In this document: in pieces, positions 1,051-54,674 of the stretch
Layout: every line of letters starts with the position of its first letter
How positions within the stretch are numbered: the stretch's first letter is position 1
NCBI RefSeq assembly: GCF_965279535.1
Contig: NZ_OZ257244.1
Coordinates: forward strand, 4,874,713-4,938,712
Source: Pedobacter sp.
Lineage (GTDB): Bacteria; Bacteroidota; Bacteroidia; Sphingobacteriales; Sphingobacteriaceae
Length of the DNA: 64,000 nucleotides
Direction of reading: 5' to 3'
The notes under the pieces: generated by a model
The model's input: the letters and a program-made list of their open reading frames with translations, nothing else
What the model was told of the DNA's origin: nothing
Database searches by the model: none
Program-made: the position numbers and the translations under genes

Positions 1051-3618
1051 ATGAAAAATAACATATTCAACCTGAACACCAAGCCTAAAAGCTTGGTGTT
1101 AGCTACCGCTTTGCTCGTTTTAACAGCAAGTTCATGTAGCGTTTTTAAGAAGAACAAACGTAAAAAGGCAGCTGCAGCATCCACAGCTGCATTGGCTACT
1201 AAACCGAAAGCTGATAGTGTCAAAAGTGTCATCAGGCCTTACAGTGAGATAGTTACAGCTAAGGCAGTAACTCAAAAAGGTTTGTTTACCGTTCATAAAG
1301 TGAACGATAAATACTTTTTTGAAATTCCCAATCAACTATTAAAAAAAGAAATTTTAGCGGTAAACCGACTAAGCAAATCTACTCCCGGAGCAGGTAACTA
1401 TGGAGGTGAAGAAGTAAGTTCGAGAATTATTTATTGGGATTTAGGTCCGAATAATAAATTGTTCTTAAAAGTTTCGGCTACAGTGAGTATTGCCGATTCT
1501 AGCGATATGATTTCTAAAGCAGTGGCGAGCTCTAATCTGAATCCCATTATGGCAGCTTTCCCGATCAAGGCAAAAAGTAAAGATTCATCAGGAGTTGTAA
1601 TTGATGTAACTGATTTCTTGATTAGCGAAACCCCGCTATTATCCTTTAATGGTGAAAATAAGAAGAGCTATGGTTTAGGTCCACAGGTGGCAGATCGTTC
1701 TTACGTCGAGAGTGTAAAGAGTTTCCCAATCAATACAGAGGTAAAAAGCATCAGGACTTATACCGCTGTGGGTGGAAACTTGCCTGCAGTTAGCGAAGCG
1801 GGGGCGATTACATTAGGAATGAACACCTCTTTTATCAAGCTTCCCGAAAACCCCTTAAGAAAACGGATATACGATCCACGTGTTGGCTTTTTTGCCAGTG
1901 CAAATATTTTGTATAAAGATAACCAGCAAAAAGTAGAGCAAGAGGCATTCATCCACCGCTGGAGACTAGAACCTAAAGCAGAAGATTTAGAGAAATTCAG
2001 ACGTGGGGAATTGGTAGAGCCTCAAAAACAGATTGTTTATTATATCGATCCGGCAACGCCTAAGAAATGGAGACCGTTCTTAATCGCCGGGGTTAACGAT
2101 TGGCAAAAGGCTTTCGAACAGGCTGGTTTTAAGAATGCAATTGTGGCGAAAGAATGGCCGGAAGCAGATACCACAATGAGTTTGGATGATGCCCGTTTTT
2201 CGGTAATCCGTTACTTCGCCTCTCCTCAGCAAAATGCCTACGGTCCAAATATCGCCGACCCGAGAACTGGTGAGATTTTGGAAAGTCACATCGGTTGGTA
2301 CCACAACGTAATGAATTTGGTCCACCGTTGGTACATGATTCAGGCAGGTGCCATCGATCCAAGGGCCCGTAAAAATAAGTTCGACGATGAATTAATGGGA
2401 CAGTTAATCCGCTTCGTGTCTTCCCATGAAATTGGCCATACCTTAGGTTTAAGGCATAATATGGGGGCCAGTAGTACGGTGCCTGTCGAAAAATTACGCG
2501 ATAAAAACTGGGTAGAAGCTCACGGACATACACCATCTATTATGGATTATGCCCGTTTCAATTATGTGGCACAACCTGAAGATCATATCAGTGAAAAAGG
2601 AATTTTCCCAAGAATTAACGATTATGATAAATGGGCCATTCAGTGGGGTTATAAACCCATTTTAGATCAGCCAGATGCACAGGCAGAACGGAAAATATTA
2701 AATAAGTGGACAATCGACAGCCTGGCCGGCAACAAACGCCTGTGGTTTGGTGGAGAAGGTAAAGATTTTGATCCACGGTCTCAGGCAGAAGATTTGGGAG
2801 ATGATGGTATTAAGGCCAGCTTGTATGGAATCAAAAATCTTAAAAGAATTGTTCCTCAGTTAATTAACTGGACAAGCGAAGAAGGTAAAGGCTTTGCTAA
2901 TTTGGAAGAAATGTACAAGGAAGCCGTAGGACAATATAGCCGTTATGCATTCCATGTAGTGAAAAATTTGGGAGGCGTTATGGTAACGGAGCGAACCTAC
3001 GATCAATCGGGTCCGGTTTATCAGTCTGTGAGTTTAGCCAAACAAAAAGAGGCGATTAAATTTATGAATGAGCAGATTTTTGCTACACCAACCTGGTTAT
3101 TAAATAAGCAAATTTTGAACAAAATTGATCCGGGATATGGATTCAATGATGTTCAACGCGTTCAGCAAGGTGTTTTGGCGGCAGCTACCTCGCAAAGCAG
3201 GCTTTATCGAATGATGGTGAATCAACGTGATAATGGTAAGGGTGCTTATTCTCCGCGAGAATGGCTTAACGATTTAAAGACAGGTATTTTCACTGAATTA
3301 AAATCGGGTAAACCTACGGATGAATACCGCAGAGCGCTACAGAAAATGTATGTAGGTAGCATAATTACCATGTATAACAAACGTTTCGCCTTGCAAGGCT
3401 CTACAGATAATATTCTGGCTTCTGTAACACCAACTGAAATTTTGTTGTATTCGAATGTGAAATCTTTGGCCTTTGCACACTTAAAAGATTTGCGTGAAGA
3501 TATCACTAAGGGAGCGGCAAGCGCTAAAGATCAGGACACAAAAATTCACTTCCAATACCTGAAACAGATGTTGGATAAAATTGTGAATGAATCTCCTATC
3601 CCAGGGTTAAATTATTAA
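1051..3618 (+). CDS. Zinc-dependent metalloprotease lipoprotein (DUF5117/DUF5118/EcxA-like Met-zincin)
   Basis: Lipobox-like LTASSC, extended zinc motif HEIGHTLGLRHN, Met-turn SIMDY, and family segments YYIDPATPKKWR and DARFSVIRY. Confidence 0.9.
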   Translation: MKNNIFNLNTKPKSLVLATALLVLTASSCSVFKKNKRKKAAAASTAALATKPKADSVKSVIRPYSEIVTAKAVTQKGLFTVHKVNDKYFFEIPNQLLKKEILAVNRLSKSTPGAGNYGGEEVSSRIIYWDLGPNNKLFLKVSATVSIADSSDMISKAVASSNLNPIMAAFPIKAKSKDSSGVVIDVTDFLISETPLLSFNGENKKSYGLGPQVADRSYVESVKSFPINTEVKSIRTYTAVGGNLPAVSEAGAITLGMNTSFIKLPENPLRKRIYDPRVGFFASANILYKDNQQKVEQEAFIHRWRLEPKAEDLEKFRRGELVEPQKQIVYYIDPATPKKWRPFLIAGVNDWQKAFEQAGFKNAIVAKEWPEADTTMSLDDARFSVIRYFASPQQNAYGPNIADPRTGEILESHIGWYHNVMNLVHRWYMIQAGAIDPRARKNKFDDELMGQLIRFVSSHEIGHTLGLRHNMGASSTVPVEKLRDKNWVEAHGHTPSIMDYARFNYVAQPEDHISEKGIFPRINDYDKWAIQWGYKPILDQPDAQAERKILNKWTIDSLAGNKRLWFGGEGKDFDPRSQAEDLGDDGIKASLYGIKNLKRIVPQLINWTSEEGKGFANLEEMYKEAVGQYSRYAFHVVKNLGGVMVTERTYDQSGPVYQSVSLAKQKEAIKFMNEQIFATPTWLLNKQILNKIDPGYGFNDVQRVQQGVLAAATSQSRLYRMMVNQRDNGKGAYSPREWLNDLKTGIFTELKSGKPTDEYRRALQKMYVGSIITMYNKRFALQGSTDNILASVTPTEILLYSNVKSLAFAHLKDLREDITKGAASAKDQDTKIHFQYLKQMLDKIVNESPIPGLNY

Positions 3619-3627
3619 AAAATCGCT

Positions 3628-4734
3628 ATGATCAGTTTAAAAAGGAAACGTTCTAAAACAGCACTTATCGCTTTAGCATTGATCTCTATTTCGGCAGCCT
3701 TTTCGTTTAAGGCTGCCAATTATGAATTCGATGGTGTGCTGGCGGGCCCCGATGGGACGGTTATCAAGCTGAGCTATCGCTATGAGGGAAAAGAAGTAGC
3801 AGATTCAACAGTTTTAAAGAATAACCATTTCTCGTTGAAAGGCGCATTGCCAGAAACAATGATTTGTACATTGAGTAATTCTGCTAATCAGCAGATTAAA
3901 ATATTTGTAGCACAAAATACCATTATTGGTTTTTCAGGAACACTGGATAAATTTTATGATTTAGCAATAAAGGGAGCAACAGAAAATACTCTTTATCAGG
4001 GTTTTAAAAGTAAAACTTTATCACTTTCGGGAGATTATCGTAAAAGCATAGAAAAAGCGAAAATTGATCGCCATGACCGGAGAAATCTACATTTTTTAAA
4101 TTATAAAAGACGGGTAGATAGCCTGACTATTGATTTTGTAAAACGCAATAGTGCTTCTTCTGTTGCGGCTTTAGTTATGATTGATAGTTATTTGAATGAT
4201 ACAGATAGAAAACAGGCCGCTAATGGCTACGCACTGTTGTCTGAGAAAGGAAAAAGCACTTTTTATGCCAAACGGATTAAGCAGTTTATTGATACTGCAG
4301 TAGCCATCAGTAAGGGTAATGAGGCTCCAGCTTTTACTTTGGCCGATTTAACCGGCAAAGCGGTGAAACTGAGTGATTACCGAGGAAAATATGTTTTACT
4401 GGATTTTTGGGCGAGCTGGTGCCCGCCATGCAGAGCTGAGCATCCTTTGCTTAAGCAATTGGAGCAGCGTTATGGAAAAGAAATTGTATTTCTGAGCATA
4501 TCCATGGATGCGGTAAGTAAATCATGGAAACAGGCTGTGCAGGCAGACCAATTAACCTGGACTCAGCTCAACGACCCACAATCAACCAATGGTGAAGTCG
4601 CCGACAGTTATGGGATCAAAAGCCTCCCCTTTAACTGTATTATTGGCCCAGATGGAAAAATATTAGCAACAAAATTGAGAGGGCAGGACCTGGCAAATTT
4701 TCTTGCCAAAAACTTCACCTTACCAAGGAACTAG
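3628..4734 (+). CDS. TlpA-family thiol-disulfide oxidoreductase with N-terminal DUF4369-like region
   Basis: APAFTLADLTGKAVKLSDYRGKYVLLDFWASWCPPCRAE (CxxC thioredoxin fold), with an N-terminal signal segment. Confidence 0.9.
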   Translation: MISLKRKRSKTALIALALISISAAFSFKAANYEFDGVLAGPDGTVIKLSYRYEGKEVADSTVLKNNHFSLKGALPETMICTLSNSANQQIKIFVAQNTIIGFSGTLDKFYDLAIKGATENTLYQGFKSKTLSLSGDYRKSIEKAKIDRHDRRNLHFLNYKRRVDSLTIDFVKRNSASSVAALVMIDSYLNDTDRKQAANGYALLSEKGKSTFYAKRIKQFIDTAVAISKGNEAPAFTLADLTGKAVKLSDYRGKYVLLDFWASWCPPCRAEHPLLKQLEQRYGKEIVFLSISMDAVSKSWKQAVQADQLTWTQLNDPQSTNGEVADSYGIKSLPFNCIIGPDGKILATKLRGQDLANFLAKNFTLPRN

Positions 4735-46412: not shown

Positions 46413-46709
46413 TTAAAAATCTGATGGTGTATAGTAGTTTGTTTTAAGAACAGAAAGTTCTTTCTGACTAATCATATCCTGATAAATTAAAGCAAGCGGC
46501 AGAACAGCACCTTTACCATCGGCTGATAGGAAGGTCAGATTTGAATCATGAGAATAGCCCAACATATGCGCCATTTCATGCACCGCAGTAAAACAAATCT
46601 CCTGGGGTGTATAGTTCTTTAAGATAACCTCGCCAAGACCGAAAGTTGAACCACCCGCAAAACCGGGAGCATTTACGCATACGCCACACCCAAAAAAGGG
46701 TTTTGACAT
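46413..46709 (-). pseudogene. C-terminal fragment of a zincin metallopeptidase
   Basis: HEMAHMLGYSH (HExxHxxGxxH). 98 aa, no signal peptide, with an in-frame stop five codons upstream of the ATG. Confidence 0.55.
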
Positions 46710-46814
46710 TTGAATAGTTGGCTAGATAAAGCTAGACATTCAAAATCATCATTAAAATCAACTCATTTTATCATAAAAGTGCAATTATATCACAAAACCA
46801 TTAGTGTTGATTTC

Positions 46815-46842
46815 AAATGCAACTAAATTGCTTTTATATTTG
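46815..46842 (+). promoter_or_regulatory. Promoter with Fur/Zur-like palindrome upstream of the MerC-domain gene
   Basis: AAATGCAACTAAATTGCTTTT (8/10 pairs), abutting TATATTTG at 46835-46842. Confidence 0.65.
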
Positions 46843-46857
46843 TGGCAAATCGCTATT

Positions 46858-47250
46858 ATGAATATTTTAAAATTCAATCTGGATAAAATAGGCATTTCTG
46901 CCTCCTTATTATGTGCCATTCATTGTGCCGCATTACCATTTATTATGACGCTGCTGCCCCTATGGGGGTTAAGTTTTATCGCAAATGACTGGGTGGAGAT
47001 CGGTATGATTGGTTTGTCGCTGATATTGGGGATATGGTCTTTGGGCAAATCCTTTAAATTACACAAGCGAACTACCCCGGTTATCTTCCTGATTTTGGGA
47101 TTTGGCAGCATTGCAATTGGTCACTTTTCCGGGTTAGAGGTTTTAGAACCCATCCTGATTCCCTTAGGTGGACTGATTATTGCTTTTTCGCATCTTATTA
47201 ACTTAAAATACCTGAAAAAATGCAGGGTTAACCATATTCACCAGCATTAG
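46858..47250 (+). CDS. MerC-domain membrane protein (putative metal transporter), His-rich tail
   Basis: LDKIGISASLLCAIHCAALP signature, four hydrophobic helices, terminal HIHQH. Start ATG 46858. Confidence 0.88.
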   Translation: MNILKFNLDKIGISASLLCAIHCAALPFIMTLLPLWGLSFIANDWVEIGMIGLSLILGIWSLGKSFKLHKRTTPVIFLILGFGSIAIGHFSGLEVLEPILIPLGGLIIAFSHLINLKYLKKCRVNHIHQH

Positions 47251-47313
47251 CCAATTTTTATCGATCTTTGGCAAAATTACTGTTAAATTAATATAGATTG
47301 ATTGTTATCTTAT

Positions 47314-47355
47314 TAAAACAACATTGTTGCGTTTAAAAAGCAAAGCTTATATTTG
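47314..47355 (+). promoter_or_regulatory. Second promoter with Fur/Zur-like palindrome, upstream of the ABC operon
   Basis: TAAAACAACATTGTTGCGTTT (core CAACA-T-TGTTG), followed by TATATTTG at 47348-47355. Confidence 0.65.
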
Positions 47356-47358
47356 TGC

Positions 47359-47529
47359 ATGCATTTCAATAAAAAACAGCTGTTTCTTCCCGCGATGTTA
47401 CTGATTTCCGTGTTGAATCCGGCCTGTAAACATGGAACAAACGATGGGATTACGTTATATAAACGTTATGTGATTAAAAATCTGGTAATTAAAAAAGACC
47501 CTGTTGCAAAACGTATTGATCATGATTAA
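47359..47529 (+). CDS. Small lipoprotein-like ORF (56 aa), absent from the ORF track
   Basis: MHFNKKQLFLPAMLLISVLNPACKHG...: signal-peptide-like segment ending in Cys. Its stop overlaps the ABC ATPase start (ATGATTAA). Confidence 0.4.
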   Translation: MHFNKKQLFLPAMLLISVLNPACKHGTNDGITLYKRYVIKNLVIKKDPVAKRIDHD

Positions 47530-48148
47530 GATTAAAAACCTATCTCACACTTACGCCGGTGGGAGAACGATTAACTTTCCCGATTGGGAAATTGCAGATA
47601 TGGATCAATGGCTGCTTTTGGGGGCTTCCGGGAAAGGAAAAAGTACACTTTTAAATATCTTATCAGGATTATTAAGTCCAACTGCCGGGGCGGTGATGCA
47701 CAACGAGCTCAATCTTTACAGCCTCTCAGGCACTGCTTTAGATCGCTTTAGGGGCCGGCATATCGGAATTGTTTTTCAGCAAACGCATGTCATTAAAACT
47801 TTAAATGTCATGCAAAATCTTCAGATCGCATCCTCCCTGGCTGGATTACCCTTTGATGATTTACATGCAAAAACCTTGTTAAAAGACCTTGGAATTATCG
47901 AACTTCAGAAAAAATACCCTCAACAGTTAAGTCAGGGGCAGCTTCAGAGGCTCTCGGTGGCTCGTGCATTAATAAATAAACCTGATTTGTTGATAGCAGA
48001 TGAACCTACTTCGAGTTTAGACGATGAAAATGCATTTCAGGTTTTAGAAATGCTCCAGACACAGGCCAAAAATAATAAAGCAGCGTTAGTTATTGCTACT
48101 CATGACCAACGGGTGAGCCAACGTATTGATAAATCTTACTTATTGTAA
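47522..48148 (+). CDS. ABC transporter ATP-binding protein (LolD/MacB-like)
   Basis: Walker A GASGKGKST, signature LSQGQLQR, Walker B LLIADEPT and H-loop IATHD. Start ATG 47522. Confidence 0.93.
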   Translation: MIKIKNLSHTYAGGRTINFPDWEIADMDQWLLLGASGKGKSTLLNILSGLLSPTAGAVMHNELNLYSLSGTALDRFRGRHIGIVFQQTHVIKTLNVMQNLQIASSLAGLPFDDLHAKTLLKDLGIIELQKKYPQQLSQGQLQRLSVARALINKPDLLIADEPTSSLDDENAFQVLEMLQTQAKNNKAALVIATHDQRVSQRIDKSYLL

Positions 48149-49359
48149 TGAATATTTACCAGATCAGTTTTAAAAACCTTTATCGTAATCCACTTACTAC
48201 CGCACTCAATGTAATGCTGGTTGCTTTTGGGGTTGGTATTTTATGTATCCTCCTTTTGGCCTCAAAACAAATTGAAAGTAAACTGGAGCAAAATGCCAAA
48301 GATATCGATCTTGTTGTTGGTGCAAAAGGAAGTCCGCTTCAACTGATATTGAGCAGTATTTATCATATCGATTTTCCAACAGGCAATATTTCTGTTGCAG
48401 ATGCTGAACCCATTATGCATAATCCTATGGTAAAACGGGCGGTTCCACTTGCCCTTGGTGATAGCTATGAGGGCTTCAGGATAGCAGGTACAGACAGTGC
48501 TTTTATACAACTCTACCAATTGGAGCTGGGGAGTGGAAAATACTGGAAGGACGATCTGGAAGTAAATATCGGAAGTACGGTAGCTAAAACAACTGGTCTT
48601 AAAGTTGGCGACCGCTTTTATGGTGCGCATGGTTTAGATGGTAATGGCGATGAGCATAAACACCATATGTACATGGTAACGGGAATATTAAAAGCTCGTG
48701 GAAACGTAACTGATGACTTAATTTTAACCAACGTTGGAAGTGTGTATAAAATGCATGAAGCTGAAGGAGCGGAGGAGCATGAACCTACCGGCCATCATGA
48801 AGAGAAAGAAATTAATGATAAGGAAATCACCGCTATCTTAATCCAATATCGCTCACCCATGTCCGTAGTCCTTTTTCCCCGAATGGTGAATAAAAATACC
48901 AATATGCAGGCCGCTTCTCCGGCAATGGAAAGTGCAAGGCTATTTTCCTTAATTGGTATTGGATTAGATACTTTGAAATATTTTGCCTTTTTGATTATGG
49001 CGATATCAGGTTTAAGCATCTTTATCAGTTTGTATAACTCCATGAAAGAAAAGAAATATGATTTAGCACTCATGAGGTGCCTGGGTGCTTCAAAAGGCAA
49101 ATTGTTTTTCCATGTTGTACTGGAGGCGATAGCTGTTACGTTGATTGGAAGTTGTTTAGGCATTCTTATTGGTCATGCAGCCGTTCAGATAATTGGTTTT
49201 TACCAGGAATCGGCTCAGGCCAGATTAACCGGGAATTATTTTATTCAGGAAGAACTATACCTGATTTTAGCCGGATTGATTATCGGTTTAGTAGCTTCAA
49301 TCATTCCAGCTTTACAGGTATACCGGGTAGACATTGCTAAAACACTCTCTAAAAGTTAA
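48148..49359 (+). CDS. FtsX/MacB-type ABC permease with His/Glu-rich periplasmic loops
   Basis: DLVVGAKGSPLQLILSSIYHID, His-rich DEHKHH and EEHEPTGHHEE, C-terminal TM bundle with LMRCLGAS. Confidence 0.88.
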   Translation: MNIYQISFKNLYRNPLTTALNVMLVAFGVGILCILLLASKQIESKLEQNAKDIDLVVGAKGSPLQLILSSIYHIDFPTGNISVADAEPIMHNPMVKRAVPLALGDSYEGFRIAGTDSAFIQLYQLELGSGKYWKDDLEVNIGSTVAKTTGLKVGDRFYGAHGLDGNGDEHKHHMYMVTGILKARGNVTDDLILTNVGSVYKMHEAEGAEEHEPTGHHEEKEINDKEITAILIQYRSPMSVVLFPRMVNKNTNMQAASPAMESARLFSLIGIGLDTLKYFAFLIMAISGLSIFISLYNSMKEKKYDLALMRCLGASKGKLFFHVVLEAIAVTLIGSCLGILIGHAAVQIIGFYQESAQARLTGNYFIQEELYLILAGLIIGLVASIIPALQVYRVDIAKTLSKS

Positions 49360-49362
49360 GAT

Positions 49363-49797
49363 ATGAAAGGTTTTGGTTTATTGATTTTGTTGTTCAGCTC
49401 ATTTTTCGCTTCAGCACAGGTAAAAGTACATACCGATATGCGCACGCCTACCTGGAACATTATTGGCTTACGGTACGATAAAGAAATTGCTCCGGGAAAA
49501 TGGGGAAGCGGCTATCCACCTGCATTGAAAAAACTCCATAATAAAATCATTGAGTTGCCTGGTTATATTATTCCAACCAAAGTGGGAAGCAAGTTCTCCG
49601 AGTTTATGTTTTCAATTGTGCCCATAGCCTCTTGTCCTTATTGTGGTACAGGAGATATTCCTGCTATGATTGAAGTAAAAACGCTGACACCTATTCCCAT
49701 CACCGAAAAACCTATAAAACTCCGTGGGATATTCATTATAAACGATTCTGGTGACGACCGGAGTGAATTTTTTCTGCTAAACGCCAAGAAAATATGA
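49363..49797 (+). CDS. DUF3299-like exported protein, copy 1
   Basis: Signal peptide, IELPGYIIP, CPYC motif, PIKLRGIFIIN. Confidence 0.7.
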   Translation: MKGFGLLILLFSSFFASAQVKVHTDMRTPTWNIIGLRYDKEIAPGKWGSGYPPALKKLHNKIIELPGYIIPTKVGSKFSEFMFSIVPIASCPYCGTGDIPAMIEVKTLTPIPITEKPIKLRGIFIINDSGDDRSEFFLLNAKKI

Positions 49798-50240
49798 TGA
49801 AGCATTTAAATAAATACTTATTGTTCGGCCTCTTATTGTGGAACTTGAGTTTGGCTGCCCAGGTTAATGTACATAAAGAAATGCGTACAGCGAATTGGAA
49901 TTTAATTGCATTGCGGTACGAGAAACAGGTAAAGCCACTGGTCTTCAAAAGTATTTTCCCTTCCGAGCTCAGGGCCATTAATAACACAGTGATTGAGTTA
50001 CCCGGTTACATTATTCCAACTAAGGTGGGTAATACTTTTTCAACATTTATGCTTTCTATAGTGCCCATAGAATCTTGTCCTTTTTGTGGAACAGGAGATA
50101 TTCCCTCCATGGTAGAAGTTAAAATGTTAAAAAACTTAAAATGGACTGATAAGGTGGTACGGATAAAGGGAAAATTTGTGATTAACGATTCTGGAGATAA
50201 CAGATCCGAGTTCTTTTTACTTGATGCCGAGCAGCTATGA
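49794..50240 (+). CDS. DUF3299-like exported protein, copy 2
   Basis: Signal peptide, IELPGYIIP, CPFC motif. Close paralogue of copy 1. Confidence 0.7.
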   Translation: MMKHLNKYLLFGLLLWNLSLAAQVNVHKEMRTANWNLIALRYEKQVKPLVFKSIFPSELRAINNTVIELPGYIIPTKVGNTFSTFMLSIVPIESCPFCGTGDIPSMVEVKMLKNLKWTDKVVRIKGKFVINDSGDNRSEFFLLDAEQL

Positions 50241-50686
50241 GATATGTATGGTTGTTATTCTTTTTATTTACAGGATGCCTTGTACAGGCCCAGAACCCTA
50301 AACATAATCCAAACGATCAGTTACGCTCACTCAATTGGGATATTATCGGAACTGTCAAGTTCGAACTAACGGAAAAGAACGAACTCAATCCAGTTTATAC
50401 CGATGCAATAAAAAGGTTTGAGCATAAACCATTTGAACTTAAAGGATATTTAATCCCTATTAAAACCGGCCAAAAGCAACAGAAGTTTTTATTGGCTACT
50501 TTACCCATTAATCAATGTTTCTTTTGTGGTCAGAATGGTGTGCCGGTTATGATCATGATAGAAATGGATCAGCCAATCAGTTATTCTGAAAAACCTATAA
50601 CTGTAGTGGGTATATTGGAATTGGAACAGAAAGATGCCAGTTATGCCCCGCCAATTTCCATTAAGCACGCCAGATTAAAAGGATAA
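50237..50686 (+). CDS. DUF3299-like exported protein, copy 3
   Basis: Signal peptide, FELKGYLIP, CFFC motif, ITVVGILEL. More diverged than copies 1 and 2. Confidence 0.7.
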   Translation: MRYVWLLFFLFTGCLVQAQNPKHNPNDQLRSLNWDIIGTVKFELTEKNELNPVYTDAIKRFEHKPFELKGYLIPIKTGQKQQKFLLATLPINQCFFCGQNGVPVMIMIEMDQPISYSEKPITVVGILELEQKDASYAPPISIKHARLKG

Positions 50687-50691
50687 GCCAT

Positions 50692-51522
50692 TTATTTCGG
50701 CCTGGTGCTTTCTTTTGCATGTTGCCTGCTGTGGATGTAATCGGAAGGAGACATGCCAAACTGCTTGGCAAAGTTTCTTCCAAAGTGGGTTTGTGAACTG
50801 TATCCCACCATTTCGGATACTTCATAAATTTTAAAGAAACCTTCATTTAACAACTCTGCTGCCTTTTTTAACCGGGCCAGGTTAATCAATTCATTCGGGG
50901 TAAGGTCGGATATGGATTTGATCTTTCTATATAAGGTGGGCCTGCTCATATTCATATGTTCTGCCAGGTGCTCAACATCCAGATCCTGATTGTCTAAGTT
51001 TTTAATTATAGTTTCCTGGAGCTTTTCTAAAAACTGTTCATCACCCTTAGAGTATGCCATTGTTTTGATATGAATTAGTGGCGAGCTTGCAAAATAGGCT
51101 TTGATTTTATTTCGGTTTTTGATTAAGGATGATACTTGTACCTGTAAAAATTCAGGAGAAAATGGTTTCTCTATATAGGCATCTGCACCAAGTTCGATAC
51201 CCTCAATTTTAGATTGCAAAGTGTTTTTTGCGGTAAGTAATATTACCGGGATATGGCTGAATTCGAGACTGGATTTAATCCTGCTACAAAGTTCAAAGCC
51301 ATCCATTTTGGGCATCATAACGTCGCTTATCACGAGTTGGATAATTTCTTTATTCAAAATTTCCAGCGCTTCTACACCGTCTCTGGCCTGCCGTACCTCG
51401 AATTTTTCAGACAGGTCATCGGCAATAAAATCCAGTATATCTTCATTGTCATCTACTAAAAGGATAATGGATTTTTCTTCCTGTTGCTGTCCCTGCATAT
51501 CGGCTGCTAAAGTTTTTTCCAT
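50692..51522 (-). CDS. Response regulator (REC + AraC-type HTH), output half of a split HTCS
   Basis: ILLVDDNEDI, SDVMMPKMDG, PVILLTAK and SEMVGYSSQTHFGRNFAKQFG. Confidence 0.93.
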   Translation of the reverse strand: MEKTLAADMQGQQQEEKSIILLVDDNEDILDFIADDLSEKFEVRQARDGVEALEILNKEIIQLVISDVMMPKMDGFELCSRIKSSLEFSHIPVILLTAKNTLQSKIEGIELGADAYIEKPFSPEFLQVQVSSLIKNRNKIKAYFASSPLIHIKTMAYSKGDEQFLEKLQETIIKNLDNQDLDVEHLAEHMNMSRPTLYRKIKSISDLTPNELINLARLKKAAELLNEGFFKIYEVSEMVGYSSQTHFGRNFAKQFGMSPSDYIHSRQHAKESTRPK

Positions 51523-54500
51523 TTGCCTTTTAAATTAAATTCGATGAGTTGATGGATTGGAAGTTCGAGTATAAAGATATTATGATTATTGTTATGTTCA
51601 TCCACAAATAATTTCCCATGGTGAAGTTCTGCAAGCGATTTTGAAATAGATAAGCCTATGCCCGTACCATGCTTAATTTCTGTTTCCGTAGCCCTGAAAA
51701 AAGGTTCAAATATTTTTTCTTTAAGCTCTTTTGGAATAAGTGGCCCATCACTTTCTACAAAAATTTGAAAATAGTCCTGATTTACAACAGGAAAGAGGCT
51801 AATGGTCACCATGCGTTCACCATATTTTAGGGCATTATCAGTTAGGTTACTCATGATTTTATACAGCGCCTCGACGTCCACATATGCTTCTATAGTATTT
51901 TCGGGGAGTTGCAAAACATAATGGATTTCCTGTTGCTCGGCTGCGGCCTGAAAGCTTAGAAATATATCCTGCAGGATTTCATTGATATTCGCTTTTACAA
52001 AATTAAGGGAGAAATTCTTAATTTCCGTTTTGCGGAAATCGAGCAGTTGATTGGTTAATGAAAGGAGCCTGTTGGTATTCCTATCCATTATTTTTAAATT
52101 TTTTTCTATAGCAGGTACACTTTCGGCCAGTTTAATTACCTTTTCCATAGGCCCTTTTATAAGGGTAAGTGGTGTTCTGATTTCATGCGCAACATTGGTA
52201 AAAAATTCGATTTTTGCCTGATAAATTTCCTTCTCTTTCTTATTCTCGAAAAGCTCCATCCGCCTTTTATTTTTAGTTTCAATTCTGCGGTGATAGCGCA
52301 TTACCAGGTAAATAATCAAGGCAGAGGCAAGAATGAAATATAGAAAATAGGCTAAAGGACTCTTATAAAAAGGAGGTAAAACCTTGATTAATATTTTAAC
52401 ATTCTTTTGGCTCCAGTTATTGCTGCCATTGATTAGTGCTTTAGCCTCAAAAGTATAAGTACCAGCGGCTAGTTTGGTAAAGTATACTTTTCTGTTGGTT
52501 TTAAGGTAAACCCAGGTTTTATTTAAGCCACTCATTTTGTAGGCATACTCCGTCATGTCAGGCGAAGCATAACCCAGGGCAGCAAAATCAAAACTGAAAG
52601 AAGATTGATCATCTTTAATAATGAGTGTATCAGTATAAATAATCGATTTTTTAAGCACCGAATCAGGACCATTTACTAAGGTTTCTTCGTTGTCGATCTG
52701 AAAACCTGTTAAAAAAACAGGTGGCTGGATATTGGTATTCCTTAAGTTCGCAGGTAAAAAACTAATCAAACCTTTTACGCTTCCGAAATAGAAGCGACCG
52801 TCTGTATCTTTAAAGGATGAGCTGTAGTTAAATTGATCAGTTAATAATCCGTTAGACCTGGAATAGGTTTTGATCTGTTTACTTTCAGGATCGAAACGAA
52901 TCAAACCCCGGGTGCTGCTAATCCATAACTTTTGATCTTCATCTTCCAGTATCCTGAAAATAGAATTGCTGGGAAAACCGTCTTTTGTTCCGAAATGGAT
53001 AAAACTTTCGCTGTTGGCATCAAAAAGGTTGAGTCCGCCACCATCAGTAGTTACCCAGATGTTGTGTCGACTATCTTCAAAAACGCTGTTTACACTGTTA
53101 TGGCTAAGCGATTTTTTGTCGCCAGCTATATTTCTATAATTTTTAAACCCTTTTTTATCCAAACGGAACTTGTAAATGCCGTCATTAAAGCTGCTAGCCC
53201 AGATATTACCTTTGCTATCTTCCATAACGGCATCATAAAAGAACATGGGCACCTCCGGAATAGGCTCAAAGAAATCTTTACCGGGGATATAACGGTATAA
53301 ACCATAAATAGTTGCAACAAGGATATCACCTTTACTTGTTTTGCAAAAGGAAACAATAAAATTGGTTCGGAGTCCGTTTTTATCACTGGCGGTATAATGT
53401 TTTACCACCTTTCGGCTTTTAATATCCATAATATCGAGACCATGCTCAAAAGTTCCGATCCACAGTTTATCACCATCTACCAGCAGGCCGTGAATGTTAT
53501 AGTAAGCAATGCTATGCGGAGTTCCATCGGGTAGGAAATTTTCAAACAGACCTGTTTTGGCATCGAGTTTATTTAAACCTGCATCTTCAGTACCTATCCA
53601 TAAGTTACCATCATTGTCTTTACATATTTCACGAACATCACTTCCGCTAATAGAATTACTTCCTTTTTGAGGAAAATATTTAGTAAATACTGCATACTGG
53701 CTTGAATAATAGTTAATTCCGCCAAAATAAGTGCCAGCCCAAATGCCTCCTTCACGGTCGCGGTAAACGGTATAAATGGCATTGTCGGATAGGGCATAAA
53801 AATTATTATACTGCTTTTGCAGGTGCGCTAACTGCCCGTTCTGGCTATTGTAGATGTACACACCTGATTCTGTGCCAATCCAAAATTCATGCTCTTTAGA
53901 TTGAAGGATATCTCTGACAAAAATGGAGGTTTTATCTTCATTAAATGTTTTAAGATTGCTGATGGAATAAGTTTTGAGATCGAAGAGCTTTAATCCCTGG
54001 TTTGCTGTTCCAACCAGAAGTTTTCCGTTACCGGCATCAAGGATCTTGGTGGTCCAGCCACTTTCCTTACTTTTACTCATTACATAATGAGATTCAAAAT
54101 TGCCCTGCAGCGGATTATACTTTTCTAATGTTCCCTGCATGCTACTGATCCAGATTGCCCCATCATTGGTGATGCAGATTGAATTTGCTGAAAAGGGTGC
54201 TTTTTGGTTAAAAGGATAAAACCGCTTTTCTGCCGTATGATAAGTAAATAGCCTGCCCAGCGAAACAATCCAGAGATTTCCTTTCCTGTCACTCTGAACA
54301 TCATTGATGCGCATGTCTTTAGTTTCGGGAATGAGTTTAAAACTTTCTTGCTGTGGGTTATACAGGTATACCCCTTTATTGGTGCCTATCCAGAGCCTGT
54401 GCTGTTTGTCGGTATGTAAAGCATAAATAAGATCATTGCCTATGCTTTTGGGATCTTCATCGTTATGGCGATAAGTTTTAAAGGTGTAACCATCAAAGCG

Positions 54501-54674
54501 ATTTAAACCATCCTTAGTACCAAACCACATGAAGCCTTTATCATCCTGGACAGCGCAGAAAACAGTATTGTTTGATAATCCATTCTCTACCTGGTAGCGT
54601 CTGAAATAATAGGGCTGAGCCATGATGAGCTTACTCATCAATAAGAAGAAAAATAGGATGGCTGGTTTTTTCAA
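51507..54674 (-). CDS. Sensor histidine kinase with beta-propeller and Y_Y_Y domains, no receiver domain
   Basis: FMWFGTKDGLNRFDG blades, FFTNVAHEIRTPLTLI, NLTDNALKY and GTGIGLSI. The protein ends just after the HATPase domain. Confidence 0.93.
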   Translation of the reverse strand: MKKPAILFFFLLMSKLIMAQPYYFRRYQVENGLSNNTVFCAVQDDKGFMWFGTKDGLNRFDGYTFKTYRHNDEDPKSIGNDLIYALHTDKQHRLWIGTNKGVYLYNPQQESFKLIPETKDMRINDVQSDRKGNLWIVSLGRLFTYHTAEKRFYPFNQKAPFSANSICITNDGAIWISSMQGTLEKYNPLQGNFESHYVMSKSKESGWTTKILDAGNGKLLVGTANQGLKLFDLKTYSISNLKTFNEDKTSIFVRDILQSKEHEFWIGTESGVYIYNSQNGQLAHLQKQYNNFYALSDNAIYTVYRDREGGIWAGTYFGGINYYSSQYAVFTKYFPQKGSNSISGSDVREICKDNDGNLWIGTEDAGLNKLDAKTGLFENFLPDGTPHSIAYYNIHGLLVDGDKLWIGTFEHGLDIMDIKSRKVVKHYTASDKNGLRTNFIVSFCKTSKGDILVATIYGLYRYIPGKDFFEPIPEVPMFFYDAVMEDSKGNIWASSFNDGIYKFRLDKKGFKNYRNIAGDKKSLSHNSVNSVFEDSRHNIWVTTDGGGLNLFDANSESFIHFGTKDGFPSNSIFRILEDEDQKLWISSTRGLIRFDPESKQIKTYSRSNGLLTDQFNYSSSFKDTDGRFYFGSVKGLISFLPANLRNTNIQPPVFLTGFQIDNEETLVNGPDSVLKKSIIYTDTLIIKDDQSSFSFDFAALGYASPDMTEYAYKMSGLNKTWVYLKTNRKVYFTKLAAGTYTFEAKALINGSNNWSQKNVKILIKVLPPFYKSPLAYFLYFILASALIIYLVMRYHRRIETKNKRRMELFENKKEKEIYQAKIEFFTNVAHEIRTPLTLIKGPMEKVIKLAESVPAIEKNLKIMDRNTNRLLSLTNQLLDFRKTEIKNFSLNFVKANINEILQDIFLSFQAAAEQQEIHYVLQLPENTIEAYVDVEALYKIMSNLTDNALKYGERMVTISLFPVVNQDYFQIFVESDGPLIPKELKEKIFEPFFRATETEIKHGTGIGLSISKSLAELHHGKLFVDEHNNNHNIFILELPIHQLIEFNLKGKWKKL

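Follow-up and report, generated by a model that had tools for sequence, protein, structure and literature searches.

Zrg-type systems and the related PA4063-66 genes are widespread and Zur-controlled, and their mechanism is disputed: the Vibrio system is read as an importer, the Pseudomonas system as an exporter, and the MacB fold that both share should not carry ions. In Vibrio, Zrg supports growth under zinc limitation or chelation (PMC9820375, PMC9817125); import by ZrgABC was assigned from growth phenotypes (PMC9820375), and single zrgE knock-outs showed no phenotype. Here we analyzed a 64,000-nucleotide stretch of a Pedobacter genome (the window, G000:C1:4874713-4938712; G000 denotes this genome, a single contig of 5.47 Mb with 39% GC whose named homologues also point to Pedobacter), in which positions 46778-50686 of the + strand carry an ATP-binding cassette (ABC) gene cluster with a MerC-family partner. 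Sequence comparison identifies this cluster as a distinct variant of the known Zur-controlled Zrg-type system, its core being homologous to ZrgBC-ZrgE and PA4064-PA4066. We consider it probable, though well short of certain, that the cluster is a zinc-limitation module of a Zur-type regulon, in which a Zrg-type type VII ABC machine captures periplasmic zinc and MerC is the likely channel.

A ZrgA-less variant of the Zrg gene set

Along the + strand, a decayed palindrome is followed by a first operator box and promoter (box 1, P1), merC, a second box and promoter (box 2, P2), a 56-codon gene, the genes of the ABC ATPase and the permease, and three genes for exported proteins with a CxxC motif (p1, p2 and p3). 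From the small gene to p3, stops and starts overlap or sit 3 nt apart, and the small gene and all that follows it therefore appear to form one translationally coupled operon; the gene next after p3 is convergent. An initial annotation, made from the sequence alone, had described a MacB-type ABC system resembling Zrg, with a MerC partner and no binding protein. All the elements it described were located, and its list of merC, ATPase, His-rich permease and three CxxC proteins holds, except that it had overlooked the conserved 56-codon gene.

The ATPase (47522-48148, +, 208 aa) is of the LolD/FtsE/MacB type (ABC_tran, E 2.5e-28), with LolD, FtsE and DevA as its best NCBIfam matches, all under the cut-offs. 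The permease (48148-49359, +, 403 aa) matches FtsX and MacB_PCD in Pfam and has four transmembrane helices and a periplasmic domain spanning residues 51-257. Foldseek matched its AlphaFold2 (AF2) model (overall predicted local distance difference test, pLDDT, 84) best to LolE, MacB, Spr0695, HrtB and FtsX (E 1e-16 to 1e-7), and the permease also matched type VII ABC proteins in a profile search of the PDB. The MacB-type architecture put forward earlier is thus borne out by domains, PDB profiles and fold alike. The cluster shares with the type VII ABC mechanotransducers (MacB, LolCDE, FtsEX, HrtBA, BceAB) a four-helix FtsX domain, a large periplasmic domain and a separate ATPase; it differs from them in having no MacA/TolC-type partners and no lipoprotein-release or cell-division context, and in the metal-ligand-rich loops of its periplasmic domain. 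Neither the operon nor any of 80 related loci, the best from a scan of species genomes, contained a gene for a MacA-type adaptor or a TolC-type channel.

The ligand-rich loops are the most distinctive part of the permease. His161, His170 and His203 do not vary among 28 permeases of the Bacteroidota type and occur in Phaeobacter as well, and a long His/acid-rich insertion (residues 206-223), disordered in the AF2 model (pLDDT <50), occurs only in the type without ZrgA. ZrgA itself (DUF2796/PF10986) was found nowhere in the whole genome and was seen in none of the Bacteroidota loci examined, and searches for ZnuA came up empty both in this genome and in all 31 Pedobacter genomes examined. The missing binding protein is therefore confirmed for both candidates, ZnuA and ZrgA, and the His-rich loop of the permease appears to stand in for the latter.

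The likeness to Zrg that had been proposed is also upheld. A LolD-like ATPase and an FtsX/MacB permease are encoded side by side, a DUF3299 gene (assigned at superfamily level) comes right after the permease gene, PA4066 is the top match of the CxxC proteins, and the permease aligns at 28% identity (E 1e-34) with that of a Zrg-type operon on a Phaeobacter plasmid, whose order is Fur, DUF2796 (ZrgA), ATPase, permease and DUF3299. With ZrgABCDE of Vibrio cholerae and V. parahaemolyticus, the cluster has in common a split LolD-like ATPase and FtsX-type permease, with a periplasmic protein of the DUF3299 family encoded next; each also has a small membrane protein with a single pass, ZrgD in Vibrio and the 56-aa peptide in Pedobacter, and a link to a Fur-family regulator and zinc limitation, which is comparative in our case. 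It departs from the Vibrio system in lacking ZrgA, in a permease with its own His-rich loop, in an unlike operator sequence, in a C-x-x-C-G motif where the Vibrio protein has C-I-H-x-P-P-P-P, in the triplication of the DUF3299 gene and in the added MerC-family gene. PA4063-PA4066 of Pseudomonas aeruginosa has the same ATPase-permease-DUF3299 order and a predicted MacB-type fold (PMC11481552), whereas the Pedobacter cluster has no PA4063 homologue and no pyochelin context. The Bacteroidota form therefore offers a simpler test system for this disputed family: it has no ZrgA, its ligand loop lies within the permease, its CxxC motif is clean, its MerC neighbor is recurrent, and it occurs in a genus in which no ZnuABC was found.

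The three CxxC proteins are paralogous, carry signal peptides and share an invariant CxxCG. They are p1 (49363-49797, +, 144 aa, CPYC), p2 (49794-50240, +, 148 aa, CPFC, 55% identical to p1) and p3 (50237-50686, +, 149 aa, CFFC). A tree separates two old subtypes: p3 belongs to subtype A, present in all Pedobacter operons, and p1 and p2 to subtype B, the sole copy in Dyadobacter; within subtype B, p1 and p2 are a recent duplication. DUF3299-like genes come after the permease gene in 76 of the 80 loci.

The assignment of these proteins to DUF3299, made in the initial annotation, holds in part. The window proteins fall under the Pfam gathering cut-off (PF11736, 22 bits; p1 and p3 score 13.7, E 0.07, and 13.5, and p2 gives no match), and searches with single sequences gave no match in the PDB and none in Pfam with an E of at most 0.01. 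By contrast, a profile built from 18 sequences had PDB 4hsp as its top match (E 0.0033), and 4hsp, "DUF3299 family protein PA4066", was also the best Foldseek match of the AF2 model of p3 (pLDDT 85.8), a remote similarity at 15% identity and TM-score 0.43. The wider CxxC/DUF3299-like family holds 2253 representatives at 50% clustering, and 21 of 43 sampled distant members match PF11736. The canonical C-I-H-x-P-P-P-P loop of PA4066 and the Phaeobacter homologue is replaced here by C-x-x-C-G-x-x-G-P, and a Polymorphobacter DUF3299 protein has an intermediate loop, C-x-F-C-P-P. We therefore place p1-p3, at the level of profile and predicted fold only, in a divergent CxxC branch of DUF3299, as predicted periplasmic OB-fold proteins. 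Elsewhere in the genome, a fourth, orphan DUF3299-like CxxC protein (G000:C1:3519826-3520260, +; CFYC; 46% identical to p3) is encoded without adjacent ABC genes and without a strong box.

The small gene (47359-47529, +) encodes a conserved 56-aa exported or lipid-anchored peptide with a signal- or lipoprotein-like N-terminus, an invariant N-P-x-C-K-H just past the hydrophobic stretch and a basic tail, L-Y-x-R-Y; no Pfam family matched it. It is kept between merC and the ATPase gene in Pedobacter relatives, and the median ratio of nonsynonymous to synonymous substitution rates (dN/dS) is 0.13 over 40 pairs, which places it under purifying selection as judged from these alignments. That the open reading frame is a pure regulatory leader is less likely, given the signal-like segment, the N-P-x-C-K-H motif, the dN/dS value and the overlap of its stop with the start of the ATPase gene; it may have a regulatory role alongside coding. 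The peptide may be the functional counterpart of the single-pass ZrgD of Vibrio.

Upstream of this operon and behind a promoter of its own, merC (46858-47250, +, 130 aa) is the sole PF03203 gene in the genome and matches the family over its full length (E 8.5e-25, profile positions 1-108 of 108). The protein has about four predicted transmembrane segments, with C-A-I-H-C in the first, and a Cys/His-rich C-terminal tail; the L-C-x-I-H-C of the first segment is kept across phyla, in homologues from Chondrinema, Polymorphobacter and Xanthomonas. It shares with MerC of Tn21-type mercury operons the full-length PF03203 domain, the small multi-pass layout and the cysteines of the first segment, and differs from it in the histidine of C-x-I-H-C, the Zur-type box, the link to a zinc chaperone GTPase and the lack of a mer operon. 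The canonical plasmid mer-operon merC gave no tblastn match at E 0.01 or better, and in place of merR, merP/T and merA the neighbors of merC are zinc-regulon genes. No relation of MerC to the Vibrio ZrgD family emerged from Pfam searches at E up to 10, which gave only MerC and a faint MerT match.

The association of MerC with this set recurs in several arrangements. In genome G041, merC stands alone behind a strong box; in Chondrinema, a COG0523 gene lies co-oriented 5 bp after merC, apparently in one operon; and in Polymorphobacter, merC stands ahead of a thioredoxin-like (redoxin-like) gene, the ABC set and two genes of the DUF3299 type. These comparisons identify MerC as an independently regulated member of the regulon that is linked to a zinc chaperone GTPase, and we regard it as a likely candidate for an inner-membrane zinc channel. 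No paper linking MerC to Zur was found in the limited paper library searched. The Polymorphobacter locus lies on a plasmid (NZ_CP080245, 135741-144718; L150) and encodes MerC, the ATPase, a permease 41% identical to ours, two CxxC DUF3299 proteins and PAP2; the presence of this Bacteroidota-type set on an alphaproteobacterial plasmid suggests horizontal transfer.

Operator boxes and a candidate Zur regulon

Two promoters of the Bacteroidota TAnnTTTG type, each accompanied by a palindrome, precede the two units. Box 1 (AATGCAACTAAATTGCTTT, 46816-46834), a candidate operator of a Fur-family regulator, probably Zur, abuts the P1 -7 element (TATATTTG, 46835-46842, +), which lies 15 nt before the merC ATG and whose position is kept in relatives. 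Box 2 (AAAACAACATTGTTGCGTT, 47315-47333), a weaker candidate operator, lies 14 nt upstream of the P2 -7 element (TATATTTG, 47348-47355, +), which is separated by 3 nt from the start codon of the small gene; the P2 transcript probably has no leader or a very short one. In G012, the closest relative, the P2 layout is identical and box 2 is retained. A sigma-70 promoter and terminator scan, uninformative for this phylum, found no terminator between merC and P2. Taken alone, TAnnTTTG is not enriched in the window (72 occurrences against 82 expected), and it counts as evidence only through where it lies and through its retention in relatives.

The palindromes have a 9-3-9 architecture, AAATGCAAY-N3-RTTGCATTT, with one copy at each of the two promoters. 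With up to 3 mismatches, the consensus read from the sequence in the initial annotation has 2 matches in the window against 0.11 expected. A weight matrix (consensus ATAAATGCAATnnnATTGCATTTAT) was derived from 34 boxes, namely box 1 and 33 boxes of relatives, with box 2 left out. Box 1, itself in the training set, ranks first in the 5.47 Mb genome with a score of 29.4, and box 2, outside the training set, ranks seventh of ~5.5 million positions with a score of 15.4. Across the 31 Pedobacter genomes, AATGCAAYNNNRTTGCATT with at most 1 mismatch occurs 78 times against 5 for a reversed control. Orthologous boxes precede merC in relatives, and an equivalent box lies upstream of the operon in Sphingobacterium, Ohtaekwangia, Cyclobacteriaceae and Flammeovirgaceae. 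The earlier reading of two promoters, each with its palindrome, is thus borne out by the count in the window and by the genome ranks of both boxes. We found no description of a Bacteroidota Zur box or of a TGCAAY-N3-RTTGCA operator in the limited paper library that we searched.

Relatives also carry the regulator itself. In ~26 of the 80 loci, among them one locus each of Cyclobacteriaceae and Flammeovirgaceae and that of a Chondrinema plasmid, the operon ends with a Cys/His-rich Fur-family gene (~140 aa) immediately after the DUF3299 gene. Its orthologue here is found elsewhere (C1:846883-847308, 55-76% identity), divergent from a TonB receptor gene; upstream of it there is no clear palindrome, just two ATTGCATT half-sites. 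The sole other Fur-family gene here, between relA/spoT and purA, matches FUR models far better.

The genes found behind the same operator include hallmark zinc targets. In 19 related loci, a COG0523 GTPase (cobW + CobW_C) diverges from merC across two boxes, which lie 38 bp apart in the short spacer; this GTPase scores 549 bits on the NCBI model of the ZigA zinc metallochaperone (NF038288, cut-off 600). On a Chondrinema litorale plasmid, one arm encodes the ATPase, folE, the Fur-family repressor, the permease and DUF3299, the divergent arm encodes MerC and COG0523, and an ABC ATPase, a TonB receptor and a DUF3526 gene come next, with boxes in both intergenic regions. In the Pedobacter genome, matrix sites precede a gene for a small His-rich protein with a TonB receptor and two DUF4625 proteins, and a further cluster that encodes a second His-rich protein along with an ABC ATPase, a TonB receptor and DUF3526 permeases. 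Another box, of moderate score (12.8), is found 45 bp in front of an operon of three genes (G000:C1:1529706-1531810): a methyltransferase-like gene, a membrane protein gene and, at its end, a ZIP-family transporter gene. The genome's second-best box precedes a gene for a thioredoxin-reductase-like pyridine-nucleotide-disulfide flavin oxidoreductase (G000:C1:2322125-2323021, -; L053:562-1458) and is conserved in G009, G011 and G012; this box and those of the receptors have counterparts at orthologous positions of other Pedobacter genomes. The flavoprotein box and the redoxin-like gene of Polymorphobacter jointly hint that thiol redox state is relevant to the CxxC proteins.

Compared across genomes, this set of boxes probably points to a Zur-type zinc regulon. 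The control by a Fur-family protein, probably Zur, that had been predicted for the two promoters thereby gains comparative support from the Fur gene at the operon end, the boxes at ZigA-like COG0523 genes in relatives and those at the ZIP operon and TonB-receptor clusters here. As in the Zur regulons of Proteobacteria and Firmicutes, which include COG0523/ZigA, ZnuD-type receptors and ZnuABC, a Fur-family repressor would act on palindromes over promoters, and COG0523, TonB receptors and transporters are among the targets; the present regulon differs in its TGCAAY-N3-RTTGCA operator and in that ZnuABC was not found in the 31 Pedobacter genomes. For Sphingobacteriales and Cytophagales, a candidate operator and regulon of Zur are thereby at hand.

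The local history of the cluster fits an operator kept only while it is needed. A third palindrome (AGTGCAATTATATCACAAA, 46778-46796), absent from the first reading of the sequence, lies upstream of box 1. G012 retains COG0523 upstream of merC, homology to G012 begins only at window position 46766, and tblastn did not find COG0523 in this genome. Comparison with the relatives identifies the third palindrome as what is left of the box that they have for their divergent COG0523/ZigA-like gene; its decay in a genome that has lost this gene is as expected of such an operator. Downstream of the operon, G012 has the same response-regulator and kinase genes as this genome, and the zur-less operon end is therefore common to both.

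Two further observations concern the boxes elsewhere. Two small membrane proteins (119 aa, G000:C1:5467458-5467817, L025:4459-4818, and 121 aa, 1619272-1619637, L026:4273-4638) are related to each other, each have an HHH(C/D) cluster and a C-terminal NKGPP, and match no Pfam family; both genes come immediately after a box, as the first of a TonB-receptor cluster. In G009, a Pedobacter genome without the ABC operon, two adjacent boxes lie between an FAD oxidoreductase gene and a short extra Fur paralogue of 126 aa (G009:C1:2455600-2462700; L059, ~3524-3970).

Proposed zinc capture and competing explanations

We propose the following course of events. When zinc is sufficient, the Fur-family repressor (C1:846883-847308) would be bound to the 9-3-9 palindromes that overlap the two TAnnTTTG promoters; when zinc is scarce, repression would be lifted and two units would be expressed, MerC on the one hand and the coupled operon of a small membrane-anchored peptide, the ABC ATPase and permease and the three CxxC proteins on the other. 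To our knowledge, the transmembrane domains of type VII, MacB-type proteins have no substrate channel (MacB, LolCDE and FtsEX structures), and in the absence of a known transmembrane path for a substrate the machine therefore most likely acts on the periplasmic side. Zinc would be captured on the His loop of the permease and on its CxxC partners and passed on by ATP-driven mechanotransmission; the MerC-like protein, with C-x-I-H-C in its first transmembrane segment, and/or the ZIP transporter would move it inward, where it could reach a ZigA-type chaperone in genomes that have one. We infer zinc responsiveness, the direction of flow and the channel role of MerC from comparison of sequences. 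The initial annotation had suggested that the system may load metal into periplasmic proteins or retrieve it from them, a role that is conceivable here. A more far-reaching form, which we advance only tentatively, holds that MerC-family proteins are the missing inner-membrane zinc channel of Zrg-type systems and that zinc passes along a mer-like thiol/imidazole relay from the CxxC OB-fold proteins and the His loop of the permease to the C-x-I-H-C of MerC and on to a ZigA-type chaperone; gated by the ATP-driven mechanotransmission of a MacB-type ABC protein, this relay would be the main high-affinity zinc route in Bacteroidota that lack ZnuABC. This would give non-mercury MerC proteins a first plausible job.

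Several points weigh against the zinc-capture model. Box 2 is degenerate. The operon-linked Fur-family protein matches the NCBIfam Fur, Zur and PerR models far below their cut-offs and its PDB matches are mixed, so that these searches do not separate Zur from Fur or PerR. This genome has neither an operon-linked zur nor COG0523, and the strongest zinc markers therefore come from relatives. Only two conserved ligand residues, those of CxxC, are present per DUF3299-like monomer, and in p1-p3 these cysteines could form a mere periplasmic disulfide. Zinc transport by MerC is itself an inference. Lastly, work on P. aeruginosa interpreted PA4064-65 as a MacB exporter for pyochelin-cobalt and saw no evident binding of zinc by PA4066 (PMC11481552).

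Of the other explanations, the one we take most seriously, while judging it unlikely, keeps the regulon and makes the ABC machine an exporter or extractor; its cargo would be a metallophore, with or without bound metal, or a wrongly acquired metal such as cobalt, and zinc would enter through MerC, ZIP and TonB receptors. The type VII ABC proteins known so far all act outward or periplasmically, the permease has the fold of LolCDE, MacB and HrtBA, the P. aeruginosa data favor pyochelin-cobalt export (PMC11481552), and the co-regulated cluster of receptor, ABC and DUF3526 genes looks metallophore-related. However, membrane-fusion and outer-membrane partners are missing from the operon, the loci inspected showed no genes for metallophore synthesis, the Vibrio system promotes growth under zinc chelation (PMC9820375), and the His-rich periplasmic loop and CxxC partners resemble capture devices. 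A slightly less probable alternative is the original Vibrio reading, in which the ABC protein itself imports zinc across the inner membrane, the CxxC proteins act as binding proteins and MerC is an unrelated or redundant co-regulated permease. It agrees with the assignment of ZrgABC from growth phenotypes (PMC9820375), with the absence of ZnuABC from the 31 genomes of the genus and with the regular position of DUF3299-like genes after the permease, but it has to reconcile import with single zrgE knock-outs that gave no phenotype in Vibrio and with a MacB-type fold, matched here, for whose transmembrane domains no substrate channel is known.

The remaining alternatives concern the signal rather than the machine. 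The palindrome might be read by a Fur paralogue that responds to another signal, for example iron, manganese, cobalt, nickel or peroxide, and the cluster might serve that metal or thiol redox. The sequence models leave room for this, as do the TonB receptors and pyridine-nucleotide-disulfide oxidoreductase in the regulon, the redoxin-like gene in the Polymorphobacter operon and the extra small Fur paralogue beside two boxes in G009; we nevertheless hold it improbable, as the ZigA-like COG0523, the ZIP transporter, the His-rich loops and the homology to Zur-controlled Zrg indicate zinc and a separate canonical Fur is present. That the palindromes are chance or non-regulatory matches and the cluster is expressed constitutively seems to us very improbable indeed. 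TAnnTTTG by itself is not enriched in the window, and some high-scoring genomic sites fall inside genes. The high-scoring boxes at C1:2890105 (within a SusC-like open reading frame), C1:2373558 and C1:359780 may be due to chance. Against this stand the genome-wide ranks of boxes 1 and 2, the 78 occurrences against 5 for the control, the conservation of boxes at orthologous promoters across two orders and the decay of the very box whose gene was lost.

Genes flanking the cluster

Between a sulfatase locus and merC, an open reading frame of 98 aa (46413-46709, -) with a metzincin-like HEMAHxxGYSH motif and only faint Pfam matches fills the position that COG0523 holds in relatives; a paralogue 45% identical to it is encoded at G000:C1:3501559-3501846. 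On the other side, beyond p3, lie genes for a response-regulator/AraC protein (50692-51522, -, 276 aa) and a hybrid two-component-like sensor (51507-54674, -, 1055 aa), which overlap by 16 nt; the same split arrangement of response regulator and sensor is present in G012.

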